The notes: a model not told the origin generated them from the sequence alone. 64,000 nt of DNA from a bacterium (GCA_046759165.1 JBHIBS010000001.1:4002-68001), one strand, 5' to 3'. Shown: positions 3,357 to 40,210, numbered from the stretch's first letter. Made by a program: numbers and translations.

Positions 3357-4310
3357 CTACGCAATGCCTAAATTCTGAAGGTAGCCTCGGGAACTGATGA
3401 CATCTTCTCTCAATGAGATGTCATGAGGTTCCAGTACTTTGATGGTGTGATGGTTCAAATAGGAACTAACGATTTCAAAGTTTATCTCGCCGTTTCCAGG
3501 ACTGTGATGGTCGGAAAAGCCAATTATATCATGGAGATGAATTCCCAGCAATTTGTCAGAATACTCCTTCAAAAAACTTTCATCTGAGTCTACTAAACCC
3601 AGCTTCTGGGCAACCCGAGCGTGGCCGGTATCGTGCCAATAATAAACATTCTTACCTGGAAAATGTTCCAAGATTAATCTTATCTCTTCAAAACTCGGAA
3701 TTTCATGATGGAAAAATCTATTCTCCATGCCGAGTTTTATATTGAATCTCTCTGAATAATTACTAATTTCCTCTAAGCTCTTTAGTGTATTTGAAAAGTA
3801 CACAGCCTTTTCCTTCTCCCGTCGATTGAGTACCTCCGATATCAATTTTTTACACAGACCTCTCTTTCCCTGAGCACAATAGTTAAAAATCTCTTTTGCT
3901 CGGCTTTCTATTGCTACCTCTCCTGCATGAATAACCACTGCCTCTGCATTCAAAAGATGAGCGAAATCAATGGTTCTCTTGGTAAGCTCAACTGCCTTCT
4001 TCCTCTCTTCACCATCACACGAAGAGAGGAGATAAGCACCCATAAGGGACCGACCTGATGGGACTTTAGTGAGTTTGGGGCAAAAATTATGTAAGGACAC
4101 AATTTTAATTTTTCCTTTTTTGTAAAGAACTAATATTTCATCGAGCATTTGTTCAGTCACCTCGACATTCAATTCTATTGCCGAAAATCCCATGTCTATA
4201 ATTTCTTCAACTAAGCTTTTCCCGTTCTGATATCTTTTTACATTCCAGGCAGTAGATAGAGCCAACAATGTTCTTCCCTCCAAATAATTCAGACAAAAGA
4301 CTTTAGACAC
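3357..4310 (-). CDS. Sugar phosphate isomerase/epimerase (xylose isomerase-like TIM barrel) family protein
   Basis: About 317 aa with HD/HxH metal-ligand-like motifs (WHDTGHA, HLHD); family assignment by recognition only. Confidence 0.5.
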   Translation of the reverse strand: MSKVFCLNYLEGRTLLALSTAWNVKRYQNGKSLVEEIIDMGFSAIELNVEVTEQMLDEILVLYKKGKIKIVSLHNFCPKLTKVPSGRSLMGAYLLSSCDGEERKKAVELTKRTIDFAHLLNAEAVVIHAGEVAIESRAKEIFNYCAQGKRGLCKKLISEVLNRREKEKAVYFSNTLKSLEEISNYSERFNIKLGMENRFFHHEIPSFEEIRLILEHFPGKNVYYWHDTGHARVAQKLGLVDSDESFLKEYSDKLLGIHLHDIIGFSDHHSPGNGEINFEIVSSYLNHHTIKVLEPHDISLREDVISSRGYLQNLGIA

Positions 4311-4364
4311 GTCGCAAGATTCAGACTGATCTTTCGAACTAAAGAACTAAGCGGCCCATGTAGG

Positions 4365-7333: not shown

Positions 7334-7452
7334 CCCTGGCGATGTCCTACTCTTCCATACCGTTACCAGTACAGTACCATCAGCGCTGGAGGCCTTAACT
7401 TCTGTGTTCGGGATGGGAACAGGTGTTTCACCTCCGCCATAATCGCCAGGGG
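7334..7452 (-). rRNA. rrf: 5S ribosomal RNA
   Basis: Reverse complement reads CCCTGGCGATTATGGCGGAGGTGAAACACCTGTTCCCATCCCGAACACAGAAG...GGAAGAGTAGGACATCGCCAGGG, a canonical 5S. Confidence 0.9.
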
Positions 7453-7479
7453 AAAACGTTTAATAAAATCAAATAGTAT

Positions 7480-10565
<3,086 letters not shown>

Positions 10566-10719
10566 TACTACTTAATTTTACTCGACGATATATTGAATCC
10601 ACCTGCATAATAGCAGGGTACCCTTTATTTGTCAAAGAGCAAATAAATATAAGAAACAAAATGTAAGTGAAAAATTCTCCCCACTTACACCCTATATCTT
10701 TCTACTTGTCTTTTTTATC

Positions 10720-10795
10720 TGGTGGAGAATACCGGACTTGAACCGGTGACCTCCTCGGTGCAAGCGAGGCGCTCTCCCAACTGAGCTAATTCCCC
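10720..10795 (-). tRNA. tRNA-Ala (anticodon UGC), CCA encoded
   Basis: Reverse complement GGGGAATTAGCTCAGTTGGGAGAGCGCCTCGCTTGCACCGAGGAGGTCACCGGTTCAAGTCCGGTATTCTCCACCA. Confidence 0.93.
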
Positions 10796-10891
10796 ATGTA
10801 GATGCGCAGAATATTTCTTAACTTATAAACTGGGCCAGACCCACAAAAAAGGCAGATGAAGGAAACGAGTTCTCACTTACCCCTGCCTCTT

Positions 10892-10968
10892 TGGTGGGCC
10901 TTTCTGGGTTCGAACCAGAGACCTCTACCTTATCAGGATAGCGCTCTAACCAACTGAGCTAAAGGCCC
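10892..10968 (-). tRNA. tRNA-Ile (anticodon GAU), CCA encoded
   Basis: Reverse complement GGGCCTTTAGCTCAGTTGGTTAGAGCGCTATCCTGATAAGGTAGAGGTCTCTGGTTCGAACCCAGAAAGGCCCACCA. Confidence 0.93.
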
Positions 10969-11090
10969 TTTCTGAATTGACCTAAGATTTATATAGTTAA
11001 TATAAACTTTTTCTTATATAACTGAGCCTTTTAGCCTCCTATTAACATTTATTAAAATTAAATAGGAGCTGAAGCCAAAAACCCTGAAAT

Positions 11091-12691
<1,601 letters not shown>

Positions 12692-12768
12692 GGAAATTTA
12701 CTCAACACCTTGAATTGACCAGGGTTATCTGGCTCCAATGCTCCTATTTTGATTTCAAAGAACTAACC

Positions 12769-35723: not shown

Positions 35724-36536
35724 TTAACCTGCGCTTAGCCCTTTTGACCTTCTAGCAGCCTCCTTCACGGCTGCAATCAAAATTTTCTGGAATCCTTCTT
35801 CCTCAAGATATTTCAACGCAGCTTCAGTTGTTCCGCCAGGTGATGTCACTTTTGCCCTTAAAACTTGAGGACTTTCCCCTATCTCCATAACCATTCTTGC
35901 TGCACCGAGGACCGTCTGACCAACCAGGTTTCTCGCATCCTCCTCCGACAAACCCATCTCCATTCCCGCCTCAATTAGGGATTCAATGATGTAGAATATA
36001 TACGCTGGACCGCTACCCGACAAGGCAGTTACTGCATCGAGCATCTCTTCAGGAACCTTAACCACAATTCCCACTCCACGCATCATCTGTTCTGCAATCG
36101 CCTCCTCCCCTTCACCTGCATATTTACCTGGGGAGACACCTGAGGCACCTGTCTTGACCAGAGCAGGAGTATTGGGCATCACTCTAACCACTGGAACTTC
36201 TCTGCCAAGAGTCTCCTCTATAAAGCCCGTAGTAATTCCAGCAGCGATGGAGATAATTACTTTATCTCTTGTCACGACATCCTTAATTTCAGAAAGAACC
36301 TTCCCGATTACCTGGGGCTTTACAGCCAAAACAATAACATCGCTCTTCTCCGCTGCTTCTCTGTTGTCCTTGGTAGTGGAGACTCCTTCCCTTTCACTGA
36401 TATGCTCAAGCCGCTTAGGTCTAATATCAGTAGCCAAAACTTTATCCCTACTAATGAGTCCGCTCCTCAGAACTCCGGAGATCAATGCGCTACCCATATT
36501 TCCACACCCAATGAAGGCTACCCTTTTCTCTCTCAA
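35724..36536 (-). CDS. proC: Pyrroline-5-carboxylate reductase
   Basis: Rossmann motif VAFIGCGNMGSAL and a ProC C-terminal dimerisation domain. The frame stays open to 36722 through a GA-rich tract. A TTG at 36536 gives a typical 270-aa ProC, so the start is uncertain. Confidence 0.85.
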   Translation of the reverse strand: MREKRVAFIGCGNMGSALISGVLRSGLISRDKVLATDIRPKRLEHISEREGVSTTKDNREAAEKSDVIVLAVKPQVIGKVLSEIKDVVTRDKVIISIAAGITTGFIEETLGREVPVVRVMPNTPALVKTGASGVSPGKYAGEGEEAIAEQMMRGVGIVVKVPEEMLDAVTALSGSGPAYIFYIIESLIEAGMEMGLSEEDARNLVGQTVLGAARMVMEIGESPQVLRAKVTSPGGTTEAALKYLEEEGFQKILIAAVKEAARRSKGLSAG

Positions 36537-36711
36537 TAAATCTCTTTTCTCCTCAGGAACCACACCGGATGAACTTTTCCTCCTTTCTCCTTTACGACGT
36601 TCAACAAAGGGAGGCCTTCCTCCGCCAGGACGGCGTCTTTCTCCCTTTCTCTTCTCTTCTCTCCGGAACTTTTGGCTATTTCGTTTCATAACTTTCCTTC
36701 TCACATTATTT

Positions 36712-37392
36712 TTATCGCCCAAAGATTGCCGTTCCTATCCGCACCATGTTTGAGCCTTCCTCAATAGCCACTTCAAAGTCATTACTCATACCCATCGAGA
36801 GGTATACCGTTTCCACATTCTTTATATTCTCAGCTCTTACTTCCTCCGTCAGCTCCCTCAGTTTTCTAAAGTAGGGTCTACAATCCTCCGGATTTTCATA
36901 AAGGGGTGCCATGGTCATCAGTCCTTCAACCTTTATGTTGGAAAGTCCACTAACTTCTTTCAGAAAAGTGATTACCTCTTCAGGCCTCAATCCATACTTC
37001 GATTCTTCGCCCGATACATTCACTTCAATTAATATTTTCTGTATCTTCCCGACTTTTCTGGCCTGCTTGTCAATCTCTTTCGCCAATTTAGCGCTGTCCA
37101 CGGAATGGATTAAATCAAAAATTTTGATGGCATCCTTTGCCTTGTTCCTCTGCAAGTGCCCTACCAAGTGCCAGATAACTCTATTGTCTACTTTTGCATA
37201 TTTTTCTTTTGCTTCCTGAACTCGGCTCTCACCAATAATATTTGCTCCCGAGGCTATTGCCTCTTCAATCCTATCCACCTCTACTGTTTTGGTCACTGCC
37301 ACCAGAGTTATCTCCTGAGGATCTCGACCGACCAATTGCGACTTCACTCGGATCTTCTCACCAATTTTTTCTAAATTTTCCTTTATCGACAT
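36712..37392 (-). CDS. yggS: YggS family pyridoxal-phosphate homeostasis protein
   Basis: Alr-N-like TIM barrel; VTKT and [12 protein letters not shown] motifs; 226 aa. Confidence 0.9.
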
Positions 37393-37956
37393 ATTTTATC
37401 TATAATGTACTGCTCTCCAACGCTCCTTGGTTAATTCTGTAACCATTTTCAATTCCATTATGGTCGGCACTTTTGCCATTTGATTTTATTTTTCCTTTAT
37501 TTCTTCATTTGAGTAGCAAATTCCAGAACCAAAAAACTCATCAAGATTCGATACTTTTCCTTTTAAACAACAGAAGAACTACATTGTAGAATTGGTCTTT
37601 AATTTTTGAAAAAACCTGTTACCACAGCCGTTCTAGGGTCAAAAGACCTGCGGCCTATTGTTTGCCTCTCGGCAAAAAAAAGTTTTAGACGACTTATGCG
37701 TCTACCTTTAGTCGGGCGAAAGGGAAGTCTAAATCAAGAGTTAATGAAATCCTCGAAGAAACTGCTAGAGAATTTTCTAGAAGGAGAGAAGCTCCCCGGG
37801 AACTCAAACCGGCTGTCTCTAGAGAGAAACTCGTTGGAATAGTACTTGGCAAATTCTTAATTCTTACTTTAACAGGGATCCGTGCTAAAACCCTTATCGA
37901 TGCCCTTCTATCTGCTGAAGTTAAGAGGCTCTTGATTCTCTTCTCCTTTCCAGAAT

Positions 37957-38136
37957 TTAATGGTACTTGCTATTCGATTTTTGCTTCACCCAAGAATCTA
38001 TTTCTGACTTGTTGTAACGCCACTGTTTCCCAATTTTCGAGGCAGGAATTTTACCCTGTCTGGTCATTTTGTAAACTGTAACCTTACTCAACCTAAGATA
38101 ATCTGCTACTTCTTTTATAGTCATTAATCTTTGCAT
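37957..38136 (-). CDS. Excisionase-family helix-turn-helix DNA-binding protein (59 aa, not in ORF track)
   Basis: Hand translation MQRLMTIKEVADYLRLSKVTVYKMTRQGKIPASKIGKQWRYNKSEIDSWVKQKSNSKYH matches the Xis/AlpA/MerR-like HTH_17 pattern (TVKEVAEYLRVS.TVYRL...G.LPA.KIGRQWR). GGGGAG RBS 5 nt upstream. Confidence 0.75.
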   Translation of the reverse strand: MQRLMTIKEVADYLRLSKVTVYKMTRQGKIPASKIGKQWRYNKSEIDSWVKQKSNSKYH

Positions 38137-38170
38137 TATCTCCCCTTTCCATTCTTCTGGTCCTTTATTA

Positions 38171-38190
38171 TATCTTTTGATATCTTTTGA
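38171..38190 (-). promoter_or_regulatory. Tandem 10-bp direct repeat (TCAAAAGATA x2 in sense orientation) in the leader of the HTH gene; candidate operator
   Basis: Plus strand reads tatcttttga tatcttttga, lying between the predicted -10 and the RBS of the HTH gene. Confidence 0.4.
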
Positions 38191-38206
38191 CTTTTCGTAA
38201 TATTTA

Positions 38207-38235
38207 ATGATATATCATACCCAAAAAGAAGTCAA
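38207..38235 (-). promoter_or_regulatory. Candidate sigma70 promoter of the HTH gene (TTGACT-17-TATCAT)
   Basis: Minus-sense -35 TTGACT (38230-38235), 17-nt spacer, -10 TATCAT (38207-38212). The -35 overlaps the pgeF stop codon. Confidence 0.5.
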
Positions 38236-38990
38236 GAAAAATTTAGTTGAATTATTGCCATAAGGCGTCCGGCGGAGTCTTTATCTCGGCGATAAGAAAA
38301 GAAATTCTTATCTTCATAAGTACAAATGGGAGTTATTTCTATATTTTCCGGGAGAACCCCCGCTCGCTGCAACTGGTAAGAATTTGCCTTAGCCAAATCG
38401 ATGGACCAAGATTTTTCGTAGGAGGCTTGAGCCTTTGCTTGAAGGGATTCGGAAATTACCGAGGCTAAAACTTGTATTCCAAAGGACTCAAAGCACTCGG
38501 TGAAAGCTTTTGCTACTGGGTACCAAGAGACTCTATAACATTCTTTGCAAATATGCGGTCCAATGGCTACAAGAAGATTTTCTGCTTTTACTCCGAAAAC
38601 CTCCGACATCATCTCCACTGCTTTGGCGGAAATATTGGCAACTGTGCTTCGCCAACCCCCGTGCAGGAGACCCACTATTTTCCTTTGCGGGTCGAAAAGG
38701 AATATGGGTGGGCAATCTGCAACAAATATGGCAAGAGGAACATTGGGTAGGTCAGTAATAAGTCCGTCTGTAATTGGAATTTCTCTGCCCAAATCTTTCT
38801 CTCTAACTATAGCGATGCTATTCTTGTGTACTTGATCTCCAGTAGTGATTCGAGAATACGGTATGTTCAATCGGTAGGCTATCTGTCTTCTCTTTTCCGG
38901 GAATTTTGAATTGCCTGCATTGCGAGTTGTAATGCCAGCCAAAACGGGAAACCTGGAATTAAAGGAGATGGGAAGAAAGAAGTCTTCCAT
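38232..38990 (-). CDS. pgeF: Peptidoglycan editing factor PgeF (YfiH/YlmD laccase-domain protein)
   Basis: Conserved His/Cys (HGGW, HICKECY). Position next to ftsZ matches ylmD in Firmicutes dcw clusters. Confidence 0.85.
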   Translation of the reverse strand: MEDFFLPISFNSRFPVLAGITTRNAGNSKFPEKRRQIAYRLNIPYSRITTGDQVHKNSIAIVREKDLGREIPITDGLITDLPNVPLAIFVADCPPIFLFDPQRKIVGLLHGGWRSTVANISAKAVEMMSEVFGVKAENLLVAIGPHICKECYRVSWYPVAKAFTECFESFGIQVLASVISESLQAKAQASYEKSWSIDLAKANSYQLQRAGVLPENIEITPICTYEDKNFFSYRRDKDSAGRLMAIIQLNFS

Positions 38991-39115: not shown

Positions 39116-40210
39116 TCAACCTTTCGCACCACTTCCCGAATCTATCCCACGAATATATAATAGAAGCTCTTCGGGATTACTGGCAGAAGCTAAGGCATCT
39201 TCCAGCTTAACCAGTCCCTTACTATACAATTTCTGTAATGCCTGATTGAAAGTTTGCATTCCGTAATAATCGCCCTTTTCCATACTGCCAAGAATTTCTC
39301 CCATCTTATTTTCTTCTATCAATTTCTTGACCAGCGCAGTAACAACCAGAACTTCCACTGCGGGTACTCTGCCCTTCCCATCAGCTTTGGGCAGAAGCCT
39401 CTGGGAAATCACTGCCTTCAAGGTATCAGCCAATTGCAGGCGAACTTGATTCTGTTGGTAAGGGGGAAAGAGGTCTACAATACGGGTTACGGTTTGAATT
39501 GCGTCGATCGTATGGACCGTGGATAATACAAGACTTCCCAGCTGGGCTGCAGTCAATGCTGCAGCCATTGTGGCTAAATCTCTCATTTCACCTACTAGGA
39601 TTACATTGGGATCCTGGCGGACAATATGTTTTAAGGCTGCAGGATAATCGAGTGTATCTTCACCTAACTCCCTTTGACTTACAATGCTCTTCTTATCTCG
39701 ATGAAGAAATTCAATAGGATCTTCGATTGTTATAGTATGAACCGAACGGGTGGAATTAATGTAGTCGACAATTGCAGCCAGCGTTGTAGATTTGCCACAG
39801 CCGGTCGGCCCTGTGACCAATACAAGTCCCCGCTCATTCTCTGAAATCTTCTTTAATACAGGGGGCAAATTTAACTCTTCAAAATCAGGGACTTCAAAAG
39901 GTACAGGGCGAAATACGACGTGGATAGTTCCTCTCTGGAGGAAAACATTGATCCTAAAACGGGCCAATCCCTCTATTGCATAAGACAGGTCGCACTCGTG
40001 ATTTTCCTTGAAAATCTGTTTCTGCTTCTCATTTAAAACGGATAGGCCAATCCGCTCAGTATCCCGGGAACTAAGCACAGGATATGAACTCCGCACGAGT
40101 CGTCCATCAATTCGAAAAATCGGCGGACTTCCGGCACGGAGATGCAAGTCCGAAACCTTCTTATCAACCATTTCGCGTAAAAGGTCAACAATTTCCATCT
40201 CAGCTCCCAA
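39116..40210 (-). CDS. pilT: Type IV pilus retraction ATPase PilT (twitching motility protein)
   Basis: PilT N-terminus (DLHL.AGSPP..RIDG), Walker A GPTGCGKSTT, Asp box, His box; 364 aa. Confidence 0.88.
   Translation of the reverse strand: MGAEMEIVDLLREMVDKKVSDLHLRAGSPPIFRIDGRLVRSSYPVLSSRDTERIGLSVLNEKQKQIFKENHECDLSYAIEGLARFRINVFLQRGTIHVVFRPVPFEVPDFEELNLPPVLKKISENERGLVLVTGPTGCGKSTTLAAIVDYINSTRSVHTITIEDPIEFLHRDKKSIVSQRELGEDTLDYPAALKHIVRQDPNVILVGEMRDLATMAAALTAAQLGSLVLSTVHTIDAIQTVTRIVDLFPPYQQNQVRLQLADTLKAVISQRLLPKADGKGRVPAVEVLVVTALVKKLIEENKMGEILGSMEKGDYYGMQTFNQALQKLYSKGLVKLEDALASASNPEELLLYIRGIDSGSGAKG

Follow-up and report, generated by a model that had tools for sequence, protein, structure and literature searches.

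We analyzed a 64,000-nucleotide (nt) stretch of DNA, here called the window, from an uncultured sediment bacterium (GCA_046759165.1, JBHIBS010000001.1:4002-68001). Between pgeF and yggS, its minus strand carries a gene for a 59-amino-acid (aa) helix-turn-helix (HTH) protein, followed by a 564-nt stretch without a long open reading frame (ORF). Our results make it likely that the HTH gene is the start of a lineage-specific chromosomal cassette, and that it encodes a BldC/Xis-like regulator of its own operon whose partner for sensing cyclic di-GMP (c-di-GMP) has been lost in this genome. On sequence evidence, the supposed non-coding tract is a decayed PilZ-domain gene, the usual partner of the HTH gene.

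The HTH_17 protein

An earlier note on this DNA had proposed an Xis/AlpA-type HTH gene at this site, and the ORF was confirmed:

37957 to 38136, minus strand: intact ATG-to-TAA ORF of an HTH_17/TIGR01764 winged-helix gene, 59 aa (MQRLMTIKEVADYLRLSKVTVYKMTRQGKIPASKIGKQWRYNKSEIDSWVKQKSNSKYH)

By profile search, the product is a bona fide HTH_17/TIGR01764 member, in agreement with the type assigned to it in that note. Pfam HTH_17 (PF12728) matched residues 4-53 over profile positions 1-50 of 51 (E = 2.2e-21, 76.3 bits, cut-off 27), and NCBIfam TIGR01764 "excise" (excisionase family DNA-binding) scored 64.3 bits against a cut-off of 28.8. Classical MerR models stayed below their thresholds (PF00376, 20.4 bits against 28.2; PF13411, 14.5 against 21.6), as did the BldC family model NF033787 (21.2 bits, cut-off 77).

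The AlphaFold2 (AF2) model of the protein (pLDDT 88.5) has helices at residues 7-14 and 18-27, strands at 33-35 and 38-42 that form a beta-hairpin wing, and a C-terminal helix at 43-57, which together make up a winged-helix fold. The chain stops at residue 59, and the model has no dimerization coiled coil. Foldseek aligned the model with RdfS and BldC at TM-scores of 0.72-0.77. RdfS was the closest fold neighbor (TM 0.75, root-mean-square deviation 1.2 A, 34% identity); the BldC-DNA complexes (TM 0.72, 27% identity), Pukovnik Xis and RacA were also among the best. The best relatives in the PDB are RdfS, AlpA-family and Xis proteins.

The gene had been called unannotated, which holds for the ORF track of the window with its 60-aa cut-off, but not for public data: an identical protein in the same synteny is encoded on four other public metagenome contigs, where the gene is called with an HTH_17 match, and public annotations already list it as "helix-turn-helix domain-containing protein". 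The NCBI accession gap from FtsZ (MFQ5866410.1) to YggS (MFQ5866406.1) leaves exactly three slots, presumably those of pilT, pgeF and the HTH gene.

The PilZ pseudogene

The earlier note had described positions 37393-37956 as about 560 bp free of ORFs. No intact ORF is indeed present there, but the stretch is not non-coding, as its minus strand holds the remains of a PilZ gene:

37541 to 37936, minus strand: PilZ-domain pseudogene, orthologue of the 179-196-aa PilZ proteins P0001-P0015 (from Pfam, tblastn and DNA alignments)
37934 to 37936, minus strand: former PilZ start codon, which is ATC here and ATG in every intact relative, 20 nt past the HTH stop and with GGAG still in front
37892 to 37909, minus strand: c-di-GMP switch motif RRASIR (RxxxR), kept
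37793 to 37810, minus strand: second PilZ motif, here GLSSRG, with the Asp of DxSxxG changed to Gly (DLSSPG in L001/L003, DLSSxG in intact orthologues)
37685 to 37696, minus strand: two in-frame stops
37694 to 37696, minus strand: the first of these, TAA (GAA in L001; GAA or AAA in relatives)
37685 to 37687, minus strand: the second, TAA (TGG, Trp, in relatives; TAG in L001/L003)
37661 to 37668, minus strand: junction of a 184-bp deletion relative to L001/L003, with GAGGCAAA microhomology; about residues 97-157 of PilZ are lost
37541 to 37660, minus strand: PilZ C-terminal remnant (…RRSFDPRTAVVTGFF… / …LLLFKRKSIES, then stop) in two frames, via a 2-nt deletion and 1-nt indels

Right after the HTH stop, a shifted frame reads ...KEKRIKSLLTSADRRASIRVLARIPVKVRIKNLPSTIPTSFSLETAGLSSRGASLLLENSL...KVDA and then a stop codon. 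Pfam PilZ (PF07238) aligned to the window fragment over profile positions 1-66 of 102 (E = 9e-4, 20.0 bits, cut-off 22.5), and to the intact orthologue P0001 over positions 1-100 with 39.4 bits. In tblastn, the tract was 71% identical to intact PilZ orthologues over 101 residues, so its orthology to PilZ is clear. Joining the frames of L001, a sister of the window, gave a 146-aa query that retrieved 15 intact PilZ proteins of 179-200 aa at about 70% identity (E = 1e-50 to 1e-55).

The intact partners have a canonical PilZ domain with RRxxxR and DLSSxG (DxSxxG), an Arg-rich tail and a hydrophobic C-terminus. Since both motifs are kept, these proteins probably bind c-di-GMP. The window copy has RRASIR without the DxSxxG aspartate, and its ATC start, two TAA codons, 184-bp deletion and frameshifts leave no intact translatable PilZ gene.

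The decay can be partly ordered by comparison with L001 and L003, two of the four contigs that encode the identical HTH protein, which contain 184 extra bases in the tract, flanked by the GAGGCAAA repeat. L001, L003 and the window have all lost the start codon, and they share both the nonsense change at the Trp codon and the deletion of 2 nt; a 2-nt insertion and an Arg-to-TGA change belong to L001/L003 only. Because the Trp codon is TAG in L001/L003, its nonsense change predates the split of the two sublineages. Assembly error was considered as a source of the lesions and rejected, as they recur in five independent assemblies. Hand counts from alignment A1 put the divergence of the sublineages in the N-terminal remnant at about 5%, against 1-3% in neighboring genes; about 4 of the changes in this remnant are synonymous and 8 non-synonymous. 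This substitution pattern is what would be expected of neutral sequence.

Conservation and synteny of the cassette

With the HTH protein as query, 241 million metagenome records were scanned, and 32 loci came up at no less than 88% identity. In about 30 related loci, the gene is 88-98% identical to that of the window. At 31 of the 32, a PilZ ORF that is intact or clipped only by the contig end starts 8 or about 20 nt past the HTH stop; the sole exception is the same contig as L001. In every fully read locus (L085, L087, L088, L090 and L092-95), 20 nt separate the HTH gene from an intact PilZ gene that encodes 179-195 aa. The order pgeF, HTH, 20 nt, PilZ, an optional LysM/FecR gene, yggS, proC, yggT, mtnA, ileS was found in L085, L087, L090 and L092-95, and L088 keeps the cassette and the downstream genes, with other genes replacing pgeF upstream. 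Gaps within HTH-PilZ-yggS-proC-yggT are 13-25 nt in relatives. PilZ is also intact in L005, the closest species-representative genome (YggS 87% identical). When the surroundings of yggS were inspected in 80 genomes of other phyla, the 79 more distant ones had neither HTH nor PilZ there, and only L005 had PilZ.

Across the lineage, the HTH protein is the most conserved of its neighborhood, above FtsZ: identity to relatives is 91-95% for HTH, 89-91% for FtsZ, 87-89% for PilT, 79-88% for YggS and 75-84% for PgeF. The 2-3 nucleotide differences between the HTH genes of the window and L001 are all synonymous, and the protein is identical in both sublineages. Beyond the lineage, identity falls from 88-96% to 52-72% in the HTH family and from 63-88% to 45-46% in the PilZ family. 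Judged by its sequence and synteny, the HTH-PilZ cassette is a lineage-specific, vertically inherited chromosomal feature, and the clade of the window is the only sampled one without the PilZ half. The HTH models match as the earlier note had expected, but an outcome that the note had named as refuting its reading has essentially come about: the locus is conserved and the tract holds a known protein that was missed there, though one that is dead here.

More distant small HTH_17 proteins (35-65% identity; L096 4001-5526; L155-L157; L135, L148, L151) are tied to signaling genes: their genes directly precede GAF-histidine kinase or receiver-domain genes, or they form N-terminal fusions to receiver-like proteins. 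This suggests that "excisionase-family" mini-HTH proteins may be recurrently wired to signaling modules.

Promoter and candidate operator

Upstream of the HTH gene, the following elements were located:

38207 to 38235, minus strand: sigma-70-type promoter TTGACT-17-TATCAT (-35 at 38235-38230, -10 at 38212-38207), 10/12 consensus matches
38170 to 38193, minus strand: candidate operator, direct repeat TCAAAAGATA x2 (38171-38190), at roughly +10 to +30 relative to the predicted start of transcription
38170 to 38183, minus strand: lineage-conserved core ATATCAAAAGATAT, dyad ATATC-N4-GATAT, inside the candidate operator
38140 to 38145, minus strand: ribosome-binding site (RBS) GGGGAG, 3 nt upstream of the ATG

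Both the RBS and the promoter had been predicted in the earlier note and are present. The promoter is the best promoter-like site of the region, and its -35 element overlaps the pgeF stop codon TGA (38232-38234). An alignment of seven relatives shows hardly any variation in the -35 block TCTTGACTTC or the -10 block. The bases ATAA at 38136-38139, which follow the RBS, end in the A of the HTH ATG; relatives have a purine-rich RBS equivalent, and some use a GTG start at the same codon.

Tandem Repeats Finder reported a repeat of period 10 with 2.1 copies and 100% match at 38170-38190, and one helical turn further upstream there is a third, weak copy (ATCACGAAAA). The tandem repeat of the earlier note is therefore perfect here, but it is not conserved as such, most relatives keeping only ATATCAAAAGATAT. 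Copy two is invariant across relatives, and copy one is degenerate (6-9 of 10 matches). The core ATATCAAAAGATATAA is near-invariant and stands a fixed 52 nt after the -35 element in about 28 loci.

In about one-third of the relatives, the leader that separates the operator core from the start of the HTH gene is longer by 100-340 nt:

L085 4620-4800, and also L088/L117, L098-L102, L105, L114, L125 and L127: leader inserts made of GC-rich palindromic repeat units

The units (for example GGGGTCGCTGGAGCGACGAATAAGGAGCTCCG…GGGCGCGAGACGGTGAGCGCCC, present twice in L125) have recurring boundary sequences (GCACAGGCTGATTCACAT). They had no Rfam match and no copy inside the window, and they look like repetitive extragenic palindromic (REP) or miniature inverted-repeat transposable (MITE) type elements, for which the leader may be an insertion hot spot.

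Proposed mechanism

Taking the conservation of the locus and the family of the protein together, we propose the following mode of action. The cassette comprises a 59-aa single-domain winged-helix protein (Xis/BldC/RdfS fold) and, 20 nt on, a PilZ c-di-GMP receptor of about 190 aa, located between pgeF and yggS at the distal end of the ftsA-ftsZ-pilT cluster. The HTH protein would bind, head-to-tail like BldC, Xis and RdfS, to the conserved A/T-rich repeats with 10-bp phasing that lie shortly after the -10 element of its own promoter. Such repeats are the expected target of such a protein. Their position suggests autorepression or tuning, and the autoregulatory operator put forward in the earlier note seems a reasonable reading. 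Through this binding, the output of the conserved promoter into HTH-(PilZ)-yggS-proC-yggT would be tuned. The yggS gene is probably in the same transcription unit, because in relatives its start lies 13-16 nt past the PilZ stop. In those relatives, PilZ may supply a c-di-GMP input, the recipient being either the HTH protein or the PilT-like ATPase encoded two genes upstream. In the genome studied here that input would be gone, and the regulator would act alone.

Several observations weigh against this proposal. The case for DNA binding, autoregulation and any contact between HTH and PilZ is drawn from family precedent and gene position. Only this lineage and a few relatives have a perfect tandem repeat; most relatives have rTCrAAAnAT and then ATCAAAAGAT. 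The conserved core is also a dyad, so another factor could bind it. A search of the window for more operator-like sites found none above chance outside the locus. The conserved adjacency of the two genes is weak evidence of functional coupling because the cassette occurs in a single, fairly narrow lineage. A search for distant relatives in which HTH and PilZ co-occur independently met a sharp drop of both families beyond it, and distant HTH_17 homologues have unrelated neighbors: they adjoin sensor kinases, receiver domains and uncharacterized proteins, never PilZ. The 3:0 synonymous bias in the HTH gene is not significant alone, given 31 synonymous to 43 non-synonymous changes in the pooled neighbors (P of about 0.07).

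Alternative explanations

A bolder form of the proposal is that the HTH_17-PilZ pair is an undescribed "split" c-di-GMP-responsive transcription switch. PilZ, as a separate protein, would either dock on a filament-forming winged HTH of the BldC/Xis kind or release it, at the promoter of the division-associated yggS-proC-yggT block. The adjacency of the two genes hints at such a switch, which we regard as rather unlikely on present evidence. If it were true, this genome would be a natural sensor knock-out with the regulator kept.

Another explanation is that the HTH gene is itself decaying, a functionless orphan since the death of its partner, with its lesions still to come. Decay has already overtaken two adjacent genes in the region of the cassette, and in neighbors the ratio of non-synonymous to synonymous change looks relaxed for so short a divergence, pgeF for instance having 1 synonymous and 10 non-synonymous changes. 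Yet the gene has kept its ORF, RBS, promoter and operator intact, the three changes in the HTH gene are all synonymous, and its protein is identical in sublineages that are about 5% diverged in the pseudogene. We consider this explanation improbable.

It is less probable still that the tract is functional, whether as a truncated 80-aa PilZ translated from ATC, as a recoded full-length product, or as a regulatory RNA or terminator separating yggS from the HTH promoter. In its favor, GGAG-N8-ATC is kept, the frame 37936-37697 is open with RRASIR intact, and a terminator-like hairpin with a T8 run lies at 37704-37686. But ATC is a very rare start codon, and the fragment would lack a third of the beta-barrel as well as the DxSxxG aspartate. 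The lesions fall into several independent classes, namely nonsense codons, indels and the 184-bp deletion. The N-terminal remnant is also more diverged between the sublineages than the neighboring genes are, with the substitution counts given above. The hairpin is weak (-7 kcal/mol, 6-bp stem) and the same in L001. At Rfam gathering scores, no RNA family was found in the tract or leader of the whole window and three relatives. With Rfam 15 at a permissive E over 37200-38400, the best hits scored 15-19 bits with E above 1, and all were eukaryotic snoRNA or miRNA models. The non-coding RNA suggested in the earlier note thus found no match, and the tract is better described as a PilZ pseudogene. 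Two promoter-like hexamer pairs, TTTTCA-18-TACAAT and TTCAAA-16-TACAAT, were seen at 37583-37612 on the minus strand, within the C-terminal PilZ remnant; these bases encode …FFQKLTRPILQL… in intact relatives and could serve as an internal yggS promoter.

We also considered whether the HTH protein serves a degraded prophage or integrative element as its excisionase, or recombination directionality factor (RDF), with the tract as the remains of that element. The family name of TIGR01764 and the best PDB relatives (RdfS, AlpA-family, Xis) would fit this. Against it, the gene occupies the same pgeF-yggS position in relatives whose upstream flank was read, it has a PilZ partner in all 31 metagenome loci checked outside the window's own lineage, it is more conserved than FtsZ, and the tract is homologous to a PilZ gene and not to phage genes. 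Among the window ORFs checked, no integrase-like ORF neighbors the HTH gene, and all its neighbors are housekeeping genes. The sole tRNAs of the window sit inside the rRNA operon about 27 kb away, leaving no att-type tRNA nearby, and neither the locus nor the relatives examined gave a mobile element, cognate integrase or att sites. Because of the missing integrase, the distance of the tRNAs and the fixed, conserved synteny, the integrative-element reading was rejected and is in our view highly improbable. The earlier note had already remarked on the absence of an integrase and an att-type tRNA and had left a choice between a remnant and a standalone regulator. A gene that is fixed, syntenic and very conserved in every sampled relative does not suit a remnant, and a standalone regulator is the better view than a recombination factor.

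That the HTH protein is MAD1 of the methylation-associated defense system (MADS) or part of a similar anti-phage system can be given next to no weight: NF047737 (antiphage_MADS1) scored 73.9 bits (E = 9e-21) and some distant HTH_17 homologues lie beside large proteins that by eye, without a library scan, look defense-like or like DNA-modification enzymes, but the score is under the 80-bit equivalog cut-off and partner genes are absent from the locus and from every close relative.

The segment before yggS

A regulator acting on its own operon after the loss of its PilZ partner remains our preferred explanation. The last 130 nt or so before yggS are lacking in relatives with a direct PilZ-yggS junction (13-16 nt there). 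At this position, six relatives have a gene for a LysM/FecR/Ig protein of 440 aa:

L090 4827-6146, L085 5579-6907, and L109, L111, L118 and L124: 440-aa LysM-FecR-Ig (Glucodextran_B/Big_6) protein
37396 to 37479, minus strand: 27-codon ORF (MAKVPTIMELKMVTELTKERWRAVHYR) inside the segment of about 130 nt in the window

The 27-codon ORF aligns to residues 73-91 of the L090 protein with a score of 52, reached by none of 2000 shuffles, and there is an exact DNA match of 13 nt. The segment is plausibly the relic of a third gene (LysM/FecR); since the LysM/FecR family hidden Markov model (HMM) gave the relic only 5.5 bits, the case is suggestive only. The 440-aa protein looks secreted and is patchy across the lineage, and its LysM part has a weak, sub-threshold likeness to the division suppressor YneA.

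Gene order and other features of the window

The minus-strand order is ftsA, ftsZ, a PilT-like ATPase gene, pgeF, the 59-codon ORF, the 564-nt stretch, yggS, proC, yggT, mtnA and ileS. The nearest neighbors and the complete rRNA operon of the window are as follows:

39116 to 40210, minus strand: PilT-like T2SSE-family ATPase, between ftsZ and pgeF
38232 to 38990, minus strand: pgeF, stop TGA at 38232-38234
36712 to 37392, minus strand: yggS (PLP-homeostasis protein), the next intact gene beyond the tract
35724 to 36722, minus strand: proC (pyrroline-5-carboxylate reductase)
7334 to 12694, minus strand: complete rRNA operon
11102 to 12694, minus strand: 16S rRNA
10723 to 10795 and 10895 to 10968, minus strand: two spacer tRNAs
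7478 to 10564, minus strand: 23S rRNA
7334 to 7450, minus strand: 5S rRNA

Throughout the lineage, the PilT-like ATPase gene is wedged between ftsZ and pgeF, an unusual site for a pilus retraction ATPase, and its product is a possible alternative target of PilZ. When the ORFs of the window were scanned for GGDEF, EAL, HD-GYP and PilZ motifs, the lone match was an EAL-like regular-expression hit in the ORF at 3360-4346 on the minus strand; a 64-kb sample is uninformative in this respect.

ProC has an N-terminal extension of about 60 residues, rich in Arg and Lys (…RREEKRKGERRRPGGGRPPFVERRKGERRKSS…), before its Rossmann domain, which begins near residue 63. It is over-long in relatives too (321-322 aa), and the extension is similar to the ERRxxERR-rich C-terminal tail of the intact PilZ partners.

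Between the window and L001/L003, pgeF has 1-2 synonymous and 10 non-synonymous differences, proC 10 and 18, and yggT 2 and 5; pgeF is called shorter (212 aa) in L001/L003. These counts suggest that constraint may be relaxed or shifting around the decayed cassette. The taxonomic labels on the relatives vary among "bacterium", "Elusimicrobiota", "Firmicutes" and "Clostridia".

Implications

For annotation, a real 59-aa gene below the ORF cut-off is among the most conserved of its neighborhood, and the 560 bp that passed for "intergenic" ought to be labeled a PilZ pseudogene, perhaps together with the debris of a second gene, and not mined for non-coding RNAs. More generally, HTH_17 proteins of the "excisionase family" are often chromosomal regulators and not markers of mobile elements. 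The locus documents a tight HTH_17-PilZ cassette within a cell-division gene cluster, with the PilZ half lost in one sublineage. If PilZ does modulate the HTH protein, for which the evidence is positional, the pair would represent a new architecture for c-di-GMP-dependent transcription control.

Comparison with known systems

The surrounding gene order resembles the Firmicute-type ylm cluster downstream of ftsZ, which comprises ylmD/pgeF, ylmE/yggS and ylmG/yggT and extends to ileS. The order ftsA-ftsZ-…-pgeF-yggS-…-yggT-…-ileS is retained here, whereas a pilT-like ATPase gene, the HTH-PilZ cassette, proC and mtnA are interleaved.

PilZ c-di-GMP receptors are known to act on transcription, as in MrkH, or on type IV pilus ATPases, as with PilZ/FimX-PilB. 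The partner at our locus is likewise a canonical PilZ protein, whose gene adjoins that of a DNA-binding protein and lies two genes away from that of a PilT-like ATPase. The DNA-binding part is here a separate 59-aa protein without fusion, and PilZ is dead in this genome. A search of the limited literature that could be searched returned no paper pairing an HTH_17 or excisionase-family protein with PilZ.

Excisionases and RDFs (lambda-type Xis, Pukovnik Xis 4j2n, RdfS 8dgl, AlpA) belong to the same HTH_17/TIGR01764 families and give the best structural match. Xis and RdfS bind DNA in the head-to-tail manner of BldC. In contrast to them, the HTH gene here has no integrase, att sites or mobile-element context and occupies a fixed housekeeping position.

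BldC of Streptomyces, a MerR-like developmental regulator (PDB 6ama/6amk), differs in that its family model did not recognize our protein, that it comes from another phylum and that it has no PilZ pairing. The two share a single-domain winged HTH of about 60 residues without a coiled-coil or effector domain, and BldC, too, is a regulator encoded on the chromosome and does not belong to a mobile element. On direct repeats, BldC forms head-to-tail multimers, and its fold has been likened to Xis (PMC5859096). Its targets are A/T-rich direct repeats, which the 10-bp-phased repeat upstream of the HTH gene would fit. Most likely, then, the HTH protein works most like BldC, as a small chromosomal winged-HTH regulator.

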